The notes under the pieces are model-generated. The model did not search any database, had not been told where the DNA came from, and saw nothing but the letters and a program-made list of their open reading frames with translations. Source: Candidatus Magasanikiibacteriota bacterium (lineage in GTDB: Bacteria > Patescibacteriota > Patescibacteriia > Magasanikbacterales > GWA2-37-8). From it: a DNA stretch of 64,000 nt. The position numbers were made by a program, and so were the translations under genes. Below, piece after piece: positions 1,452-33,242 of this stretch (positions within the stretch are counted from its first letter, which is position 1; every line of letters starts with the position of its first letter). Where the stretch lies: NCBI GenBank assembly GCA_016182085.1, contig JACOYB010000004.1:75976-139975 (forward strand), given 5' to 3'.

Positions 1452-2462
1452 TTGTATCGATATATTATGGTAAAAGACAATTTAGATTTTTACGAAAATC
1501 GGAAGTTAAGCGGGGATGTGTCGGTGTTGGGAGTGCCTTTGGATTTAGGCAAAGATGCCACTGGTACTCAGCTTGGCCCGGCATATATACGCAAACATGG
1601 TTTGGAAGAAATGTGCAGAACTTTGGGATTTTTTTATAAAGATTTGGGAGATATAGAATGCGCTGGTCGTGAAGCGGCGGAAATGGGAGATATAAAAGTA
1701 AAATATTTGGATGAGATAAGCAGGGTGGTAGAAAAAACCGCCCGAATCGTACGGGATGAGATAAAAATGGGCGGCCAAATGCTCGTGCTGGGCGGTGATC
1801 ATGCTGTTTCTATCGGCAGTATTTCCGGGGCATCAGTAGCTTGCGAAGGTGATCTGGGGGTAATCTGGATAGATGCCCACGGCGATATGATGACACATGA
1901 AAATACCTTATCCGGCAATATTCACGGTATGCCATCTTCGGCAGTCATGGGTCTTGGACATCACACGTTGACGGATATATTAAAGCCGGGGGCAAAGATT
2001 AAGAAGGAAAATATTATTTATATTGGCCTCAAAGATCTGGATCAGGCGGAAATAGATTTGATCCGAAAGGAAAAACTCCATGCGTTTACCATGATGGATT
2101 TGGTGCGGGAAGGTTTTGGGCCAGTAACAGAAAGTCTGTTAGATTTACAAAAACGCGTCAGTAATATCTGGGTAAGTTTGGATGTGGATTCCATAGACTT
2201 GGATTATTCGCCAGCCACGCCTATGGCTACTGAAGGCGGTTTAACCCGAAGAGAGATTTCCAATTTGACAAAATTCATTGGCAAATTAAATAAAATCGTG
2301 GGGTTAGATGTGGTTGAATTAGCGCCAGAATTGGATAAAGATGGTAAAACCGGAAAGTTGGTAATTGAACTGGTCGCGCAGCTTCTCGGATCGGATTACG
2401 GCTGGTATGCGCATTATATGAAGAACGAAGAAGAAAAGCAGGTAAAAAGAGCTGCTATTTAA
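1452..2462 (+). CDS. arginase/agmatinase/formiminoglutamase-family ureohydrolase
   Basis: Mn-binding motifs GGDHAVS, IWIDAHGDMMT and SLDVDSIDLDYSPATP. Substrate specificity cannot be determined from sequence alone. Confidence 0.78.
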   Translation: MYRYIMVKDNLDFYENRKLSGDVSVLGVPLDLGKDATGTQLGPAYIRKHGLEEMCRTLGFFYKDLGDIECAGREAAEMGDIKVKYLDEISRVVEKTARIVRDEIKMGGQMLVLGGDHAVSIGSISGASVACEGDLGVIWIDAHGDMMTHENTLSGNIHGMPSSAVMGLGHHTLTDILKPGAKIKKENIIYIGLKDLDQAEIDLIRKEKLHAFTMMDLVREGFGPVTESLLDLQKRVSNIWVSLDVDSIDLDYSPATPMATEGGLTRREISNLTKFIGKLNKIVGLDVVELAPELDKDGKTGKLVIELVAQLLGSDYGWYAHYMKNEEEKQVKRAAI

Positions 2463-2468
2463 TAAAAA

Positions 2469-2582
2469 AATAACTAGTTTTCAGCAAACAACCTCTCGTC
2501 CGCCTCGGGCGGACTCGGGCGTTCAGATCTCATCCCGACGCGATTCGGGATTCCGGTGTGTTGCTGAAACTAGTTATTTTTT
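2469..2582. terminator. compound palindromic element / bidirectional terminator between convergent arginase-family gene and gatB
   Basis: Outer ~21-bp inverted repeat (aataactagttttcagcaaaca / tgttgctgaaactagttatt) encloses two GC hairpins (tccgcctcgggcgga and atcccgacgcgattcgggat). It fills the whole 120-bp convergent intergenic gap. Confidence 0.55.
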
Positions 2583-4135
2583 TATTTACTTATTTTTTTT
2601 CGCAGGAGTTTTTCGGTCACGGTTGGATCGGCCGATCCCTCGGTAGCTTTCATGACCATGCCCTTGAGGAATTGAAGAATAGGTTCCTTGCCATTTTTAA
2701 ACTGTTCCACTTGTTGCGGATAATTTTTTATGACTTCATCAATAACTTCCGAGAGTTTTCCTTCATCGCTAATTTGTCCGTAACCTTTTTCTTCCATTAC
2801 ATGGGTTGGGTCCAGATCCACGCCGGAATCAAGCATTTCATTTAGTATCTTTTGAGCGTTGGTAGAGTTTACGCGGTTGGTATAAATAAGCGCTACTAGT
2901 TCGGCAAAGTTTTCCGGTTTTAATCTAAGAATTTTAATATTTATGCTGCGTTCCGCCATCGCGCCCATAAGCTTGCTGGTAATCCAACCGCCGGCAAGTC
3001 TGGCGAGTTGCTGTTGTTTGTTTTGTAGGATTTCGTCCGTATCTGTTTTTGATTCGCTTAGGTTATGCAGCCAGTCTACCAGTTCGCTCATGACCTTTTC
3101 TGTATAGTCGGACCAGTGAAGATCGCTGGAAAGCAGTTCGGCATCTGCATAAGAAAATCCATATTCTTCACGCAGGCGAAGCCTTTTGGCTTGGGGTAAT
3201 TCTGGCAAAGATATATCTCCGGCGATTTTTACCGGGTGAAAAGGCGGAATATCCGGTTCGGGGAAATACCTGTAATCGGCGGCTGTTTCTTTGATTCTTT
3301 GCATCACGGTTTCGCCTTTGTTGTCATCCCAGCCCCTAGTTTGCTGTTTCCAGGCTTCTCCTTTTTCCAGCATGGCGGTTTGCCTGATTATTTCAAACTC
3401 AATCGCTTTTTCCACGGCTCGGAAAGAATTAATGTTTTTTACTTCTACTTTATGATTTAGGGTATAGCCGGCGACCGGTTTTATTACTCCTTTATCGTTT
3501 ATAAATTTATTTTCTTCCTGAAGAGAAATGTTGGCCTCACAGCGCATATTACCCTTTTCCATATCGGCATCGCTGATACCCAAATATCTAAAAATTGCTT
3601 GCAGTTCTTGGGAATACATTTTGGCTTCGGCCGAGCTGGTAACATCCGGTTCGGAAACTATTTCTACCAGCGGCACACCGGCCCGGTTAAAATTCACTAA
3701 AGTATTGCCCGAAGAGTCGTGAGATAATTTAGCCGTGTCTTCCTCCAAGTGTACTCTGGTAATACCGATATGGGCCTTGTCACGATAGTTTTTGCCCGGT
3801 AAGAATTCTAAATCTATATAGCCGTGTTCGCCAATAGGCTGGTCATACTGAGAAATTTGGTAGGCTTTGGGCAGGTCCGGATAAAAATAATGTTTGCGAT
3901 CAAATTTACTTTCGGTATTTATTTGGCAGTTTAATGCCTTGGCAATTTTGGCTGCCCATTCAATTGCCGTGTGGTTTGGCACAGGCAAGGTGCCGGGGTG
4001 GGCCAAGCAGATTTCACAGACATTGGTATTGGGAGCGGCGGAAAAAGGATCGTTTTTGCACGAACAAAACATTTTGCTTTTGGTTTTAAGCTCTACGTGA
4101 ATTTCCATGCCGATTATAGGGGTGTATTTGGGCAT
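2582..4135 (-). CDS. gatB: Asp/Glu-tRNA(Asn/Gln) amidotransferase subunit B
   Basis: 517 aa. N-terminus MPKYTPIIGMEIHVELKTKSKMFCSC with the C-terminal GatB/YqeY domain. Confidence 0.9.
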   Translation of the reverse strand: MPKYTPIIGMEIHVELKTKSKMFCSCKNDPFSAAPNTNVCEICLAHPGTLPVPNHTAIEWAAKIAKALNCQINTESKFDRKHYFYPDLPKAYQISQYDQPIGEHGYIDLEFLPGKNYRDKAHIGITRVHLEEDTAKLSHDSSGNTLVNFNRAGVPLVEIVSEPDVTSSAEAKMYSQELQAIFRYLGISDADMEKGNMRCEANISLQEENKFINDKGVIKPVAGYTLNHKVEVKNINSFRAVEKAIEFEIIRQTAMLEKGEAWKQQTRGWDDNKGETVMQRIKETAADYRYFPEPDIPPFHPVKIAGDISLPELPQAKRLRLREEYGFSYADAELLSSDLHWSDYTEKVMSELVDWLHNLSESKTDTDEILQNKQQQLARLAGGWITSKLMGAMAERSINIKILRLKPENFAELVALIYTNRVNSTNAQKILNEMLDSGVDLDPTHVMEEKGYGQISDEGKLSEVIDEVIKNYPQQVEQFKNGKEPILQFLKGMVMKATEGSADPTVTEKLLRKKISK

Positions 4136-13830: not shown

Positions 13831-14121
13831 TCAGTCCAACGGCTCGCCGCTCCTTGAACGGCGCCGCCGATCGTCGATCTGCCACGACTGCAACTGCGGG
13901 ATCTGTTCCCTGGCAGGAGCGGGCTGTGCCGGACCGGAAGAGGTCTGGCTGGTCTGCGCCGGCGGCTGGTCGGTGGAATTGTTGTCTTGGGTAGTCGAAG
14001 GATCTTGGTCGATCGAATCCCGTAGCAGCTGTTCCTCGGAATACTTGTGGTTCGGAAAATGAGTCACGGTTTCCCCCATGGTCGGTTCAAATTGGTTTGC
14101 CAGAACCGTTCTAGCAAACAC
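13831..14121 (-). CDS. hypothetical low-complexity (T/Q/P-rich) protein in GC-rich patch
   Basis: 96 aa. The plus-strand ORF 13718-14062 is a likely shadow. An upstream minus-strand TTGCAA-16-TATAGT promoter is present. Start codon uncertain (GTG or the internal ATG at MGETV). Confidence 0.3.
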   Translation of the reverse strand: MFARTVLANQFEPTMGETVTHFPNHKYSEEQLLRDSIDQDPSTTQDNNSTDQPPAQTSQTSSGPAQPAPAREQIPQLQSWQIDDRRRRSRSGEPLD

Positions 14122-27156: not shown

Positions 27157-27699
27157 CTACTTGGTCGCGGTCGCTCGCGCCGAGCGGAAGTGGCGGGCGC
27201 AGGCGCAGCGGTGCGTTGGAAACAGTTCGCCCAAGTGTTGGGCCAGAGGTGAAAGCGGATGCCGCAACTGCATTGCCTGCATGAAGCCGGTAACGAGTAC
27301 GCATTTCGCCTCTTCGGGGCAGAAGACTATGACTTTGAGCGCAGCCAGCTTCTGCAGCTGCTCCCCGCTCATTTCCTGCACACCTTCCACCTTGCCAACA
27401 GCGTCAACTGCCAGAGCCAGATTATCAAGGTATGCCTTGCCGGCCTCACCTTGATTTCTGAAGAACTCAATTGAATATCTGCACGCTATGGCCGTTCCTT
27501 CGTCAAGGAAATCTGGCTTCACCAGGAACACAACGTCGTTCGGCGTTGGAATCTGAGCGATCGGAGTTCCGCTCGTATTGGCCGGTGAATAGGTAAAGAG
27601 CACGGGGTTGTTGTTCATGATTGCCTCGCGTGGTGATGGGTACACCGTAGCTTGTACTACGGTGATTTGAAAAAGTTCAACCTGGGTATTTATATCCAA
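27157..27699 (-). CDS. hypothetical protein encoded in a GC-rich (~55%) island
   Basis: 180 aa (or ~153 aa from MNNNPV). Composition contrasts sharply with its neighbours. No motif recognised. Confidence 0.4.
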   Translation of the reverse strand: MDINTQVELFQITVVQATVYPSPREAIMNNNPVLFTYSPANTSGTPIAQIPTPNDVVFLVKPDFLDEGTAIACRYSIEFFRNQGEAGKAYLDNLALAVDAVGKVEGVQEMSGEQLQKLAALKVIVFCPEEAKCVLVTGFMQAMQLRHPLSPLAQHLGELFPTHRCACARHFRSARATATK

Positions 27700-27777
27700 T
27701 TTTTTAGTTTTGTCAACCAGTTAAACTTGTCAGCTAAGCCTTTTACTGCTAATCTATCCTTGTATTAATTTTATTTT

Positions 27778-29247
27778 ATGCCTCAAGATAAAGAGAAGTT
27801 AGCAGGATCGGAAAGCAAAGCTATTGCCAAACGAGCCGAAGATTATTCCCAGTGGTACATTGATATTATTGATGTTGCGGGTCTGGCCGAGCACGGGCCG
27901 GTAAAAGGTACAATGGTGATAAAGCCATATGGCTACGCGATTTGGGAGAATATTCAAAAGATTTTAGACGCAAAATTTAAAGAGTTAGGCGTGCAAAATG
28001 CGTACTTTCCTTTGTTTATTCCTGAAAGTTTTTTGAAAAAAGAAAAAGAACATGTGGAAGGATTTTCGCCGGAGTTGGCAGTGGTTACCCACGGCGGCGG
28101 TAAAAAGTTGGAAGAACCGCTGGTGGTGCGCCCGACTTCGGAAACTATCATGTATAGCACCTTTGCCAAGTGGATACATTCATACCGTGATTTGCCGCTG
28201 CTTATTAATCAATGGGCCAATGTAGTACGCTGGGAAATGAGGCCGCGGTTGTTTTTGCGTACCACTGAATTTTTATGGCAGGAAGGGCATACAGCTCACA
28301 AAACTGCCGATGAAGCCAAAGAATATGCGCTCATGATTTTAAATGATGTGTACAAATGGTTCGCGCAAGAGTATTTGGCAATTCCGGTTTTGGTTGGGCA
28401 AAAATCTCAGAATGAACGATTCGCTGGCGCGCTTTCTACATTTACGATAGAAGCCTTGATGCAAGATGGGAAATCTTTGCAGATGGGTACAGCTCACGAC
28501 CTGTCAGATCATTTTGCTAAATCATTTGAAGTAATGTATTTGGATGAGAAGGGTGAGCAGCAGTTTGTGTTTCAAACCAGCTGGGGTGTCAGTACACGTC
28601 TGATTGGCGGTATTGTTATGAGCCATAGTGATGATAATGGGTTGGTATTGCCGCCAAAAATTGCGCCAATTGAACTTGTAATTGTGCCGATATTTAGAAA
28701 TGCGGATGACGCGCAGCTGCAAGAAGCAAAAAAGATAGCAGAAAATTTAAAGAATACATTCAGAATAAAATTAGATGAGCGGGATAATTTACGAGTGGGG
28801 GAGAAGTTTTTTGAATGGGAAAAAAAAGGCGTGCCGCTGCGTTTGGAAATCGGACCGAAGGATTTGGCTGCCGGACAGTGCGTGCTCGTGCGCAGAGATA
28901 CCGGAGAAAAAATTGTGTGTCCGCTTAGTGATGTAGAAAAAACGGTGAAAGATTTGCTTGAAAAAATCCAGACCAATTTATTTGAATCAGCCTTGGCCCG
29001 ACAGAAACAAAATACTGTATCAGTAGATAATTGGGATGCGTTTGTAGAATCTTTGGAAAAAGGCGGATACATTTCCGCGTTTTGGTGCGAGCGAGCGGAG
29101 TGTGAGTTGGAAATAAAAGAAAAAACCAAAGCAACCACCAGATGTTTACCGTTTGATGCTGAAGAAGAAACAGGTAAGCATGTTTGTGTCCATTGTGGTA
29201 AAGCTGCGCCGCAAGGCAAGCGTTGGATTTTTGCCAGAGCGTATTAA
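27778..29247 (+). CDS. proS: prolyl-tRNA synthetase (archaeal/eukaryote-like class II form)
   Basis: 489 aa. WYIDIIDVAGLAEHGPVKGTMVIKPYGYAIWENIQ..., class II motifs and a C-terminal zinc-binding tail (CVHCGKAAP). Confidence 0.9.
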   Translation: MPQDKEKLAGSESKAIAKRAEDYSQWYIDIIDVAGLAEHGPVKGTMVIKPYGYAIWENIQKILDAKFKELGVQNAYFPLFIPESFLKKEKEHVEGFSPELAVVTHGGGKKLEEPLVVRPTSETIMYSTFAKWIHSYRDLPLLINQWANVVRWEMRPRLFLRTTEFLWQEGHTAHKTADEAKEYALMILNDVYKWFAQEYLAIPVLVGQKSQNERFAGALSTFTIEALMQDGKSLQMGTAHDLSDHFAKSFEVMYLDEKGEQQFVFQTSWGVSTRLIGGIVMSHSDDNGLVLPPKIAPIELVIVPIFRNADDAQLQEAKKIAENLKNTFRIKLDERDNLRVGEKFFEWEKKGVPLRLEIGPKDLAAGQCVLVRRDTGEKIVCPLSDVEKTVKDLLEKIQTNLFESALARQKQNTVSVDNWDAFVESLEKGGYISAFWCERAECELEIKEKTKATTRCLPFDAEEETGKHVCVHCGKAAPQGKRWIFARAY

Positions 29248-29261
29248 AATATTTAAAAAAC

Positions 29262-29300
29262 AAAAAACAGCCTTTGATGAAAACGCTGTTTTTTGTTTTT
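29262..29300 (+). terminator. rho-independent terminator after proS
   Basis: aaaaaacagcctttgatgaaaacgctgttttttgttttt. Confidence 0.6.
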
Positions 29301-29342
29301 GCCTCGACCCATGCTTCACAGCATTGGTCGAGGCTTGTACAA

Positions 29343-30023
29343 CTACCTCTGGCCCTTGGGGTCCCGTCCGTCAGGTGCGGCCTTGCGGCGCGCCTTGGCC
29401 CTGTCCTTCTTGAACTTTTTCCAGTCCTTGGCACCCGTGCTGGTGCTGGTCGTGGTCTGCTGCGGCGAGTTCTCCTCGTACCACTTCGCGTCCTGGCAGG
29501 CATCAGCCATGCAGTACTTGAAGTAGTTGGGAATCATCGCCTTGCAGTCCGGACCAGCGCACTGGTGGCCACAGTCAGAGCAGTAGAGCCCACCGTCCGC
29601 CGGAATCTCGACACTGCACCCCTTGCAGGGCTTGGTGGCGAATTCCGAACAGTTCGGGCAGTAGGTGTGCCACACCGGAATGGTCCGGCCGCATCCACCC
29701 CAGCAGGAATGAACGCAGTCGTCGCACAGCCCGGAGCGGTGGCCCAGTGGCAGCCGGTTGGTGCACTGCGCGCCGGTATCCGGGTGCTCCCGGTTGCGAC
29801 ACTGCTTGGTGGCCGGAGCCATGATCTTCGGCGGCGGAACCACGGGGGGTTCCACCACGGTCGGCTTCATCTGCTTGAGCTGTACCTCCTGGGACAGCGG
29901 GTTGGTGTCGGTCGTCTCCGGGGCGTTGGCCTCGGAGGTGGTGACGGACATCTGGTTGTTGATGGCGCCGGTGAGGATCTGGCCGAGGATGTTGACCAGG
30001 GAATCGGTGAGACGAGCGAACAT
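29343..30023 (-). CDS. cysteine-rich multi-zinc-ribbon protein in GC-rich island
   Basis: 226 aa from MFARL. AAGGAG SD 6 nt upstream. About eight CxxC/CxxxxC pairs (CDDCVHSCWGGCGR, CPNCSEF, CKGCSVE, CSDCGHQCAGPDCK). The plus-strand 350-aa ORF is a GC-rich shadow. Confidence 0.5.
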   Translation of the reverse strand: MFARLTDSLVNILGQILTGAINNQMSVTTSEANAPETTDTNPLSQEVQLKQMKPTVVEPPVVPPPKIMAPATKQCRNREHPDTGAQCTNRLPLGHRSGLCDDCVHSCWGGCGRTIPVWHTYCPNCSEFATKPCKGCSVEIPADGGLYCSDCGHQCAGPDCKAMIPNYFKYCMADACQDAKWYEENSPQQTTTSTSTGAKDWKKFKKDRAKARRKAAPDGRDPKGQR

Positions 30024-30325
30024 GGCATTCTCCTTGTTGAACTCGATGTTCTTCGTAGAAGCGCGCGGGTTGGACCGCACACTTCTTGGAGAGATGGCAC
30101 GCTGTTCATCTCAGCAGGTTGTCATGTGCGGCGTAAAGACAAATTTCATTGGGATAGTCGCATAGATCACCTCGTGGTTAAGTTGTACAGAACGCGGAAA
30201 CCCCGCCTATATATGGCAGTTATTCCGACAGAAAGAAGTTTAAATCCTTTCTCTTGGAACAACAAGAGAGACTAAACAATGTATCATAAAACTCTGGCTT
30301 TGTCAACCGTATATGCTCGCACAAA

Positions 30326-30357
30326 AAAGTCACCGATGAGGGCGACTTTTTTGTTAA
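30326..30357. terminator. terminator hairpin
   Basis: aaaaaagtcaccgatgagggcgactttttt. Confidence 0.5.
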
Positions 30358-30375
30358 TTTTTTATTTAAGACGAA

Positions 30376-30783
30376 CTAAAGGTTTTCATCCTTTCTGCGA
30401 ACGATTCTCCAGTGAATTAAGAACAGTGGAATGCCAACTGCAATCATAGAAAGATCGCGCACGACATCCCTTTGTTTTTGAGCGATGCGATTATCCTCCT
30501 GTTGTTTTTTGCTTAGTTCATTTTGTTTTTCACAATCTTCCCTAGATATTGGCGGGACCGCGTTTGGATCGGTCTTTACTCCAGCCGGCACCAGTCTGGC
30601 GTTCTCACATATGTTTGGCGCATAGTACACATCTTTGTCCGCTTGAGTGAATACCCAAGTTTTTAGAGCGATATTAATTAAATCCGCGGTAGAAAATACG
30701 ACCATCATTAAGGCGACAAATGATACGAGGTAGAAGTAGATGCTTTTGATTGTTTTTTTTGATTGTGCTGGCTGGTTGTCCAT
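30376..30783 (-). CDS. membrane protein, hypothetical
   Basis: 135 aa. N-terminal TM helix, C-terminal TM helix, charged middle. Confidence 0.5.
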   Translation of the reverse strand: MDNQPAQSKKTIKSIYFYLVSFVALMMVVFSTADLINIALKTWVFTQADKDVYYAPNICENARLVPAGVKTDPNAVPPISREDCEKQNELSKKQQEDNRIAQKQRDVVRDLSMIAVGIPLFLIHWRIVRRKDENL

Positions 30784-32687: not shown

Positions 32688-33242
32688 ATATAGTATGTAG
32701 CCACGCTCTTAACATTTAATTAGAACATTAGGAGCGTGGCAGACCAACCTTGAGTTATGGGCTAGATGCCGCGCTGACCTCGTCGCCTGACTGCATGCTT
32801 TGGCGGCAGATCTGCCGCATTCGCCGCCCTGGTCGGCTTGTTATGCGGAGGCAGGCAACTTTCAGCCAAACGCGGTGTGAAGTCAATGCCAAGCCAGCCG
32901 AAGATCGGACAGTAATAGTGAGAGAGCGCAATACCCATGGTATCCCCCTATTTTTTGATGTTGCTATCCTGGATAGTAGCGTACGAGTAACCCCAAAGTC
33001 AATTGTGGGTAACTAAGGTTGTACATTGTTGTACATACAAAAGGGTTTATGTTATATTAAATTTATCAAAGACTTACTTACTATGTATGTCAAAACTACT
33101 TAAGCAATCAATGCCGCCGCCCGGGCGCTCTGCGCAAAGTAGGGAAGCTATACAAACGCGACCCAATCCTTTAGGCAGTCTGGATCAAAAAAGGCAAGAA
33201 AGCGTGTTGCCGCAAGCAGTAATCAAAAATTTAGTAGGTAAA

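Follow-up and report, generated by a model that had tools for sequence, protein, structure and literature searches.

A conserved GC-rich transcription unit of candidate-phyla bacteria whose structured leader may act as a translational attenuator of a multi-zinc-ribbon gene

The window analysed here is a stretch of 64,000 nt from Candidatus Magasanikbacteria, a lineage of the candidate phyla radiation (CPR), and all coordinates are positions in this stretch. Between the proS gene (27,778-29,247, plus strand) and a DUF5671 membrane-protein gene (30,376-30,783, minus strand; Pfam E 3.6e-12) lies a GC-rich island, of which the minus-strand gene encodes a cysteine-rich protein and is preceded by a long structured leader. 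The GC content of positions 29,301-30,100 amounts to 64-69% (200-nt windows, peak 0.69) and that of the whole window to 0.4235. A first-pass annotation had described the island between these two neighbours, the 226-aa gene with its AAGGAG Shine-Dalgarno (SD) sequence and MFARL start, and a TTGACA-17-TACATT promoter followed by a long leader, and all of these features were recovered; the leader has a length of ~248 nt, or of ~280 nt if counted from the -35 hexamer. In the following, the island is described as a conserved, self-contained unit and its leader as a putative translational attenuator, or riboregulator, of a multi-zinc-ribbon gene in a CPR lineage, a reading that we favour with moderate confidence. 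The elements of the unit, listed in the direction of transcription (MFE, minimum free energy; UTR, untranslated region; uORF, upstream open reading frame), are:

30,323-30,352: terminator of the upstream gene, just before the promoter
30,278-30,306, minus strand: sigma-70-type promoter TTGACA-17-TACATT, its -10 extended by TG; a scan of 1.35 kb showed no second site of this kind
30,219-30,263, minus strand: P1, a long 5' hairpin with the lower stem GUUGUUCC...GGAAUAAC and the upper stem GAGAAAGG...CUUCUUUC, predicted in MFE structures
30,204-30,218, minus strand: P2, a predicted small hairpin UGCC-AUAUAUA-GGCG, the sequence of which varies between loci
30,181-30,200, minus strand: conserved box UUUCCGCGUUC(GU)UGUACAACU, window form UUUCCGCGUUCUGUACAACU, with invariant columns in the alignments A1 and A5
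30,146-30,163, minus strand: uORF AUG CGA CUA UCC CAA UGA (MRLSQ*), with the SD GAGG at 30,168-30,174 and a 6-nt spacer
30,125-30,132, minus strand: segment 2, GCCGCACA, near-invariant; complement of segment 3, repeated directly as segment 4
30,021-30,112, minus strand: tiered SD hairpin, the predicted MFE fold in 9 of 9 loci
First tier of the SD hairpin: anti-SD UCUCC (30,088-30,092) with the SD GGAGA (30,028-30,035) and the AUG (30,023)
Second tier of the SD hairpin: AGAAG (purine run) with CUUCU
Third tier of the SD hairpin: segment 3, GUGCGG (30,075-30,080), with segment 4, CCGCGC (30,063-30,068), and the loop UCCAAC
30,088-30,112: local hairpin GAGAUG/CAUCUC, the 3' strand of which runs on as UCUCC; predicted alternative for the 5' part
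29,343-30,023, minus strand: coding sequence, 226 aa, ATG start, AAGGAG 8 nt upstream, N-terminus MFARL
29,334-29,342, minus strand: 3' box (U)UGUACAAG, immediately behind the stop codon; the GUACAA(C/G) motif occurs here for the second time
29,302-29,333, minus strand: predicted 3' UTR hairpin CCUCGACC...GGUCGAGG, present in all loci with differing sequences
29,261-29,294: bidirectional terminator AAAAAACAGC-loop-GCUGUUUUUU, shared with the convergent proS gene

One shared unit of this kind is found in 11 loci. For this comparison, the DNA of relatives was recovered from loci L001-L008, L010, L011 and L132, and a profile search of genomes with a 3-sequence alignment led to one GTDB genome. 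Wherever the contig reaches far enough, the unit is arranged in the same order: first the upstream terminator and the sigma-70 promoter (17-nt spacer), then the leader and the GC-rich open reading frame (ORF), followed by the motif (A)GUACAAC, a GC-rich hairpin and a bidirectional terminator. Equivalent promoters with 17-nt spacers are present in L001, L003, L004, L005, L006, L011 and L132. The first-pass annotation had considered that the promoter could be misassigned and the gene co-transcribed from upstream, but in every locus that reaches it the promoter stands behind an upstream terminator. Directly after the stop codon, (A)GUACAAC occurs in L001-L004 and L132, and AGUAC in L005 and L010. 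Moreover, the terminator is near-identical in L001, L003, L004, L005 and L132, even where another gene lies downstream. The gene order trpS-DUF5671-unit-proS is shared by the window, L003, L008 and, in part, L001; the neighbourhood differs in L005 (DUF3048 gene upstream), in L011 (GC-rich ParA/Mrp-like gene upstream), in L004 and in L132. Thus, it is the unit that is conserved and not its neighbourhood.

The leader can also be recognised on its own. An nhmmer profile built from nine leaders detects exactly one copy in the window and finds the leader of L132, which was not used for training, at E 6e-31; moreover, the leader is always tied to one gene family. A leader lacking conservation or covariation, the second objection that had been envisaged, was therefore not encountered, since the helices covary as described below. 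A covariance-model scan, proposed earlier as a check of the leader, gave no Rfam match: at the gathering thresholds of Rfam 15, only a tRNA was found in the whole window, and in a permissive scan of 29,200-30,450 the stronger matches fell on the flanking terminators (best E 0.06, ~24 bits vs gathering 55), the sole match inside the leader being a microRNA model with 18.9 bits vs 80. A strict pattern of the 5' domain had 0 matches in metagenome DNA. The 18-mer GTGCGGTYCAACCCGCRC was found in metagenome DNA at 120 loci, none of which encodes the family, and these hits were discarded as chance matches in GC-rich DNA. A match on a viral contig (L009) was rejected as well because it lies inside an unrelated coding region.

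Several peculiarities of the recovered contigs should be mentioned. L001, L002, L004, L010 and L132 are contigs of 0.96-1.6 kb, and L003 and L011 are located at contig ends. In many assemblies the contigs are interrupted close to the ends of the unit (within a few dozen bases), and family members are often found alone on contigs of ~1 kb; possible reasons are variation between strains or reduced coverage linked to the GC content of the locus. L008 (CAZUFD010000004.1) is titled 'uncultured Gammaproteobacteria bacterium', but it is syntenic with and 85-97% identical to the Candidatus Magasanikbacteria window, and this label is probably wrong. Furthermore, the block comprising proS, the cysteine-rich gene and the leader is 96.8% identical between the window (27,577-30,263) and L008 (3,760-6,446), whereas the flanking trpS, rlmH and DUF5671 genes are 85-87% identical, a sequence pattern that suggests recent recombination or gene flow spanning this block.

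The 5' domain of the leader consists of P1, P2 and the conserved box. Among the hairpins that had been proposed in the first-pass annotation, agaaagga...tctttct corresponds to the upper part of P1, whereas ggcggggtttccgc as such was not supported (GGCG is more readily explained as the 3' strand of the covarying P2, and CCGC lies in the conserved box). P2 shows compensatory variants such as CCAUUCC/GGAAUGG in L002 and GUCC/GGAC in L003, and 3 of its 4 pairs are changed on both sides in a structure-blind alignment. On the structure-blind MAFFT alignment A5, 85.7% of the cells of P1 and P2 are paired, compared with 34-54% if the partners are slid; 7 pairs are changed on both sides (2/500 shuffles), and the covariation score is 0.253 vs 0.188 (0/500). 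The box, which reads CGCGTTC(GT)TGTACAACT at the DNA level, contains the palindrome GUUGUACAAC in most loci. This motif is self-complementary, and in the window, L001-L004 and L132 the box could form 7-8 bp with the 3' UTR; such pairing is absent in L005 and L011. Judging from these sequences, the 5' box and its 3' UTR copy could form a duplex, be recognised by one and the same dimer, or indicate sites of processing or recombination. A pseudoknot between the loop CAAC and a GUUG of the box was rejected, as the window box lacks GUUG. Conservation of the 5' domain is weak in L005 and L011, and in L006 this domain cannot be recognised clearly, though the 3' domain persists in these loci.

Directly 3' of the box, a short uORF was identified in 9 of 9 loci. 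It is composed of an SD (GGAG/GAGG), 5-7 nt, an AUG or GUG and 5-8 codons, and a similar feature arises in only 0.1-2% of the trials per locus if the same region is shuffled. The start codons of the nine loci vary only between AUG and GUG. The encoded peptides are MRLSQ in the window, MRLSR in L008, MRPPCAR in L001, MNIRC in L002, MERQPNFR in L003, MKRLCRCG in L004, MLPRR in L005, MRSDIRF in L011 and MNQPCRL in L132; all nine contain Arg, which is mostly encoded by CGA. On this basis, the uORF is regarded as real.

The 3' domain carries the tiered SD hairpin. Across nine loci, its tiers take related forms, namely UCUC, CUCC or CCUC as the anti-SD, GAAG-like with CUUC-like runs, and GUGCGG with CCGCAC. 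An alternative fold is predicted in which CCGCACA and UGUGCGG (segments 2 and 3) pair and enclose a GAGA:UCUC hairpin, which leaves the SD free. With segment 3 forced to pair upstream, this fold is 1.7-11.5 kcal/mol less stable than the MFE fold in the nine loci. The pairing of segments 2 and 3 is possible in all loci and is lengthened by compensatory changes in L004 and L132 (CACCUC/GAGGUG). Compared with shuffled sequences, the leader has a folding z-score of -3.6 in the window and of -6.7 in L001, and the MFE z-scores of the 3' domains range from -3.1 to -5.7. RNAalifold returned no structure on plain MAFFT alignments of the 3' domain; since indels shift the helices out of register, alignment-free half-swap tests were used instead. 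In these tests, the 5' half of a helix from locus i is combined with the 3' half from locus j, and native pairings are compared with permuted ones (20,000 permutations). The mean energies of native and chimeric helices, followed by the number of permutations at least as stable as the native pairing, are:

SD hairpin: native -27.9, chimeric -19.7 kcal/mol, 0/20,000
P1: native -19.7, chimeric -13.7 kcal/mol, 1/20,000
P2: native -6.1, chimeric -3.6 kcal/mol, 60/20,000
3' UTR hairpin: native -24.7, chimeric -14.1 kcal/mol, 0/20,000
Alternative helix of segments 2 and 3: native -16.0, chimeric -14.4 kcal/mol, 529/20,000
Inner GAGA:UCUC hairpin: native -7.8, chimeric -6.3 kcal/mol, 782/20,000

These tests support a joint evolution of the two halves in the SD hairpin, in P1 and in the 3' UTR hairpin; P2 covaries as well, and the parts of the unit are both conserved and covarying.

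The protein encoded by the unit comprises an N-terminal amphipathic helix, a disordered linker rich in Pro, Thr and Ala, a Cys-rich domain and a basic C-terminal helix with a tail, and this layout is unchanged among the family members. The Cys-rich domain (residues ~70-185) contains 16 Cys and 3 conserved His, and its motifs are QCRNRxHPxTGxQC, GLCxxCxHxC, GCGRxIPxW/FxxxCxxC and YCxxCGHxC...IPxxFxYCxxxxCQD. The 16 Cys form 4 strict CxxC pairs and 4 wider pairs, so that the 'about eight CxxC-type pairs' of the first-pass annotation hold in a loose sense but not as eight strict pairs. Ten of the Cys are invariant or nearly so in the family, even at 31-49% identity. In the AlphaFold2 model, the confidence score (pLDDT) is ~90 or more for residues 75-185, and no structural neighbour of the predicted fold was found. 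Identity among orthologues is lowest at the third codon position (0.51-0.55, vs 0.63-0.66 at position 2), and this pattern, together with the invariant Cys, indicates that the ORF is truly coding. The protein carries ~4-5 Zn modules, and the zinc ribbons and the basic tail suggest that it probably binds nucleic acid or Zn.

The public (NCBI) annotation lists a hypothetical protein of 245 aa with a GTG start at 30,080. This start is probably wrong: its position falls within segment 3, in the conserved GUGCGG helix, and in L004 it does not share the frame of the gene. Preference is given to the ATG at 30,023 because it is conserved across loci together with its SD. In the window and in L008, a degenerate tandem duplicate (~21 nt) of the region with the SD and the start codon occupies 30,036-30,060, between the hairpin and the active SD. 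An antisense ORF of 350 aa (29,223-30,275, plus strand) is rich in Arg, Leu, Gly, Ala and Val, a composition typical of antisense frames of genes with GC-rich third codon positions, and was therefore rejected as a gene.

The family is small and new. A full HMMER scan of 1.84 billion cluster representatives yielded 15 clusters only, the members being seen only beside genes typical of candidate-phyla bacteria. A word-indexed search of 5.8e9 proteins returned only two relatives of the window protein, and its repetition with a 16-sequence profile gave mostly low-complexity candidates and thus little gain. The window protein has no Pfam match at E <= 1 and nothing significant in PHROGs, the best sequence-profile match in the PDB has an E of 0.67, none of 16 family members matches the anti-phage defence models of PADLOC, and no earlier description was found in the literature. 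However, Pfam DZR is matched by 2 of 16 family members (best E 2.7e-8) and DZR_2 by one, the window protein matching neither, and the earlier description as a multi-zinc-ribbon protein is fair on these grounds. Like DZR and DZR_2, the family has repeated Cx2C...Cx2-4C modules; unlike in DZR, the motifs QCRNRxHPxTGxQC, GLCxxCxHxC and GCGRxIPxW/F are its own. Two identities put forward earlier were not borne out. For a zinc-binding anti-sigma (ZAS) protein, there is no zf-HC2 match in Pfam, the nearest His (H95-x4-C100-x2-C103) is not conserved, and no sigma factor gene stands beside the cysteine-rich gene, which is flanked by DUF5671 and proS. For a DnaJ cysteine-rich domain, the sequence contains no CxxCxGxG and has no match to Pfam DnaJ_CXXCXGXG. 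The protein represents a new family without a Pfam model.

Taken as a switch, the leader would control the initiation of translation. In the OFF state, the most stable, three-tier hairpin would pair the main SD and the start codon with the upstream UCUC/CUCC anti-SD. In the ON state, a competing fold that is transcribed first would be adopted, in which CCGCACA pairs with UGUGCGG, the anti-SD is held in the GAGA:UCUC hairpin and the SD is free. The OFF fold would win at equilibrium, and the single-stranded GAAG run of the ON fold could provide a toehold for CUUC. The likeliest input would be the Arg-containing uORF of 5-8 codons with its strong SD, which would result in ribosome-dependent translational attenuation; alternatively, the switch could open a kinetic window that restricts translation to nascent transcripts. 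The balance might be set by translation of the uORF or by a factor bound at the 5' domain, and the candidates for the trigger are uORF translation, a CAAC-binding protein and a ligand.

Several points weigh against this model. The pairing probability of the SD is ordinary compared with composition-matched shuffles (native 0.75-1.0, shuffled ~0.7) and does not discriminate, so that the case is carried by covariation along the entire hairpin together with the conserved architecture. The support for the putative ON helix of segments 2 and 3 is moderate (p ~0.03), as both strands are nearly invariant. Moreover, the comparison comprises ~10 independent sequences, some of which are related, and every leader structure is a prediction. 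Concerning the uORF, its stop codon lies 14-31 nt upstream of segment 2, which is too far for direct cover by a terminating ribosome, and in the marine member L006 the uORF is apparently longer (~25 codons), starts with TTG and lacks Arg. A link between the uORF and the switch is therefore putative, as neither the pairing of the uORF with segment 2 nor that of the box with the uORF shows covariation (half-swap counts 14,292 and 8,419 of 20,000).

In the proposed attenuator, regulation of a known kind would act on a gene of a new protein family, and the leader belongs to no Rfam family. The attenuators of erm, cat and cmlA genes (ermC/ermB, cat-86) likewise have a very short leader ORF preceded by an SD of its own (5-8 codons in this unit, 5-19 in cat/erm) and a main SD sequestered in a hairpin (predicted and conserved here). 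They further have a second pairing, incompatible with the first, by which the main SD would be released; segments 2 and 3 are the candidates for such a pairing here. Unlike in those systems, the regulated gene is not a resistance gene, and the uORF lies off the first stem, at the distance from segment 2 given above, so that the defining feature of the class fails. Furthermore, the conserved 5' domain (P1, P2 and the box), the CAAC repeats and the 3' UTR elements are additions of this unit, which has no sequence relation to the erm/cat leaders. The mRNAs of hok/sok-type type I toxins and the leader of the MS2 maturation gene offer a second parallel: the SD is hidden in a stable fold and exposed in an earlier, metastable one (both predicted here), there is a small reading frame upstream, and the two ends of the mRNA carry motifs that could pair (GUUGUACAAC here, with the exceptions L005 and L011). 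In contrast to hok/sok-type systems, the product is a soluble zinc-ribbon protein of 226 aa and not a small hydrophobic toxin, and no promoter for an antisense RNA was seen.

The base composition of the unit suggests a different emphasis. The unit might belong to a set of mobile or exchangeable GC-rich 'plug-in' cassettes resembling phage morons, bounded by GTACAA(C/G) and derived from a GC-rich source, and its leader would then mainly serve the processing or stability of the mRNA; this explanation, which is compatible with a regulatory leader, is possible but tentative. The GC content at third codon positions (GC3) of the cysteine-rich gene is 0.86 in the window, compared with 0.37-0.44 in five neighbouring genes, and it is 0.81-0.95 in every orthologue, despite host DNA of 35-50% GC and protein identities of 32-50%. 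Moreover, the unit occurs in differing gene neighbourhoods, and in L008 an extra GC-rich unit of ~60% GC (3,100-3,700, ORF ~3,206-3,560), which has no counterpart in the window (30,263-30,377), stands just upstream, between DUF5671 and the leader of the cysteine-rich gene. This extra unit has GTACAAC and GTACAAG at its two borders, and its promoter, TTGACT...TTTTATGATATATT, resembles that of the cysteine-rich gene of the window; the leader of the latter gene in L008 uses another promoter. Seven of the 9 GTACAA(C/G) sites of L008 are located at borders of GC islands, and TGTACA is under-represented in the window (11 vs 19.7 expected), 4 of the 11 sites being found at GC-rich units. Like phage morons, the unit is autonomous from promoter to terminator, has a deviant base composition and belongs to a setting of presence and absence between close relatives; unlike morons, it lies among housekeeping genes (trpS, proS) and not in a prophage, is GC-richer and not AT-richer than its host, and has no phage homologue. 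Indeed, tblastn with the cysteine-rich protein gave no match in 50,697 phage and 72,556 plasmid records, no donor homologue was found in 5.8e9 proteins, and no recombinase, transposase or phage gene is present nearby. In addition, the AT-rich leader belongs to the conserved unit, GTACAA(C/G) is missing at some borders (3' of island 2, 3' of a 58-aa unit described below, and L011), and the numbers are small. Integron attC sites were rejected, as GTACAAC does not fit the RYYYAAC/GTTRRRY core sites and no integrase is encoded nearby.

A simple recent horizontal transfer followed by amelioration does not explain the persistent GC3, and the signature of one old transfer should have been erased. Among orthologues, identical residues are encoded by the same codon in only 60-70% of the cases. 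Between the window and L003, identity is 48% for the cysteine-rich protein, 62% for DUF5671 and 83% for TrpS; by this comparison, the gene is fast-evolving but not extreme. The first-pass annotation had further raised a common donor for the island and two other GC-rich patches of the window (13831-14121 and 27157-27699). Both patches exist and encode ORFans, but the idea of a common donor was not upheld, as the correlations of relative synonymous codon usage among the three patches are low (r 0.21-0.41) and their GC3 values are 0.86, 0.66 and 0.67.

Protein-mediated and possibly autogenous control, in which single-stranded CAAC(C) would be bound by a protein, perhaps the zinc-ribbon product itself, and one of the folds thereby stabilised, seems doubtful to us. 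Within the leader, CAAC is found in the box, on the 3' side of segment 2, in the loop of the hairpin (UUCAAC) and immediately ahead of the SD; a further site lies in the 3' UTR. The loop is conserved as YYCAAC. With 32 occurrences vs 8.5 expected and 3-5 copies per leader, CAAC is the most enriched 4-mer of the leaders (CAACC, 19 vs 1.9); its complement GTTG is not enriched, which argues that CAAC is not there for base pairing. The Zn modules and the basic tail of the product would suit such a role. However, the counts come from homologous leaders and are not independent, no known protein binding CAAC was identified, RNA binding by the cysteine-rich protein is a supposition, and the conserved uORF would be left unaccounted for.

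A riboswitch for a ligand or a metal is unlikely. P1, P2 and the box would then form the aptamer, for instance for Zn2+ or a thiol-related metabolite, and the competing 3' folds the expression platform. This would be in line with the highly conserved junctions GUCGGAAUAAC and UUCCGCGUUC, which flank the covarying 5' helices, with the predicted bistability of the 3' domain and with the constant association of the leader with one gene family. However, Rfam has no match even with permissive filters, the gene family offers no metabolic clue, a translated uORF inside a riboswitch would be unusual, and the putative aptamer is the part of the leader that fades in L005, L011 and L006 while the 3' domain persists. 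The earlier suggestion of a structured, cis-regulatory leader was supported, but of the forms named at the outset an RNA thermometer, in which the SD hairpin would melt at higher temperature, is most improbable. In its favour, the SD and the AUG are paired in the predicted MFE fold in all loci. Against it, the stability of the hairpins is very high (-19 to -32 kcal/mol), and the weak or non-canonical pairs that characterise thermometers are missing from them; the competing segment, the uORF and the 5' domain would be left unexplained, and Rfam has no ROSE or fourU match.

The attenuator model can also be merged with the cassette, although we regard the combination as improbable. The unit would then be one of several GC-rich plug-in genes with GTACAA(C/G) borders, the cysteine-rich member being under a composite riboregulator made of the uORF, the bistable SD hairpin, the CAAC repeats and the palindromic boxes at the 5' and 3' ends. 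In that case, the palindromic boxes could serve to circularise the mRNA or in its processing, and the zinc-ribbon product may bind its own leader. The extreme GC3 would not be the fading trace of a transfer; selection on the mRNA, or replacement time and again from a hidden GC-rich reservoir, would actively keep it up.

The remaining GC-rich genes deserve a brief description. Island 1 (13,831-14,121, minus strand) encodes an ORFan of 96 aa with low complexity. Its GTG start (GTG-TTT-GCT-AGA) does read (M)FAR, as had been pointed out, but the resemblance to the start of the cysteine-rich protein is a coincidence, the two proteins showing no similarity. The ORF of island 1 starts ~10 nt after a TATAGT -10 box and may be leaderless. 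Island 2 (27,157-27,618, minus strand) encodes a 153-aa ORFan with only three close relatives in 5.8e9 proteins, and its short leader contains a hairpin (27,645-27,662; CCGUAG-CUUGUA-CUACGG on the plus strand), with UACAAG as its loop in the minus-strand transcript. A fourth small GC-rich gene (32,762-32,938, minus strand; leader to ~33,080), absent from the first-pass annotation's list, encodes 58 aa, MGIALSHYYCPIFGW...AVRRRGQRGI. L008 has a counterpart of equal length in which both ends are conserved and the middle diverges. The leader of the window gene contains TGTACAAC twice (33,018-33,037), compared with one copy only in L008, and an Rfam scan of this GC patch at 32.7 kb gave no match. 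In L011, the gene for a ParA/Mrp-like P-loop ATPase just upstream of the unit (2,328-3,128) has 66-71% GC against a background of ~49%, which indicates that GC-rich islands in these genomes are not limited to ORFans.

Knowledge of gene regulation is very scarce for CPR bacteria (Patescibacteria), organisms without genetic tools, and the leader described here provides a concrete candidate for a cis-regulatory RNA that is testable by mutation. Moreover, the locus is a small natural test case for the upkeep of a local base composition, be it by selection on the mRNA, by biased conversion or by recurrent replacement.

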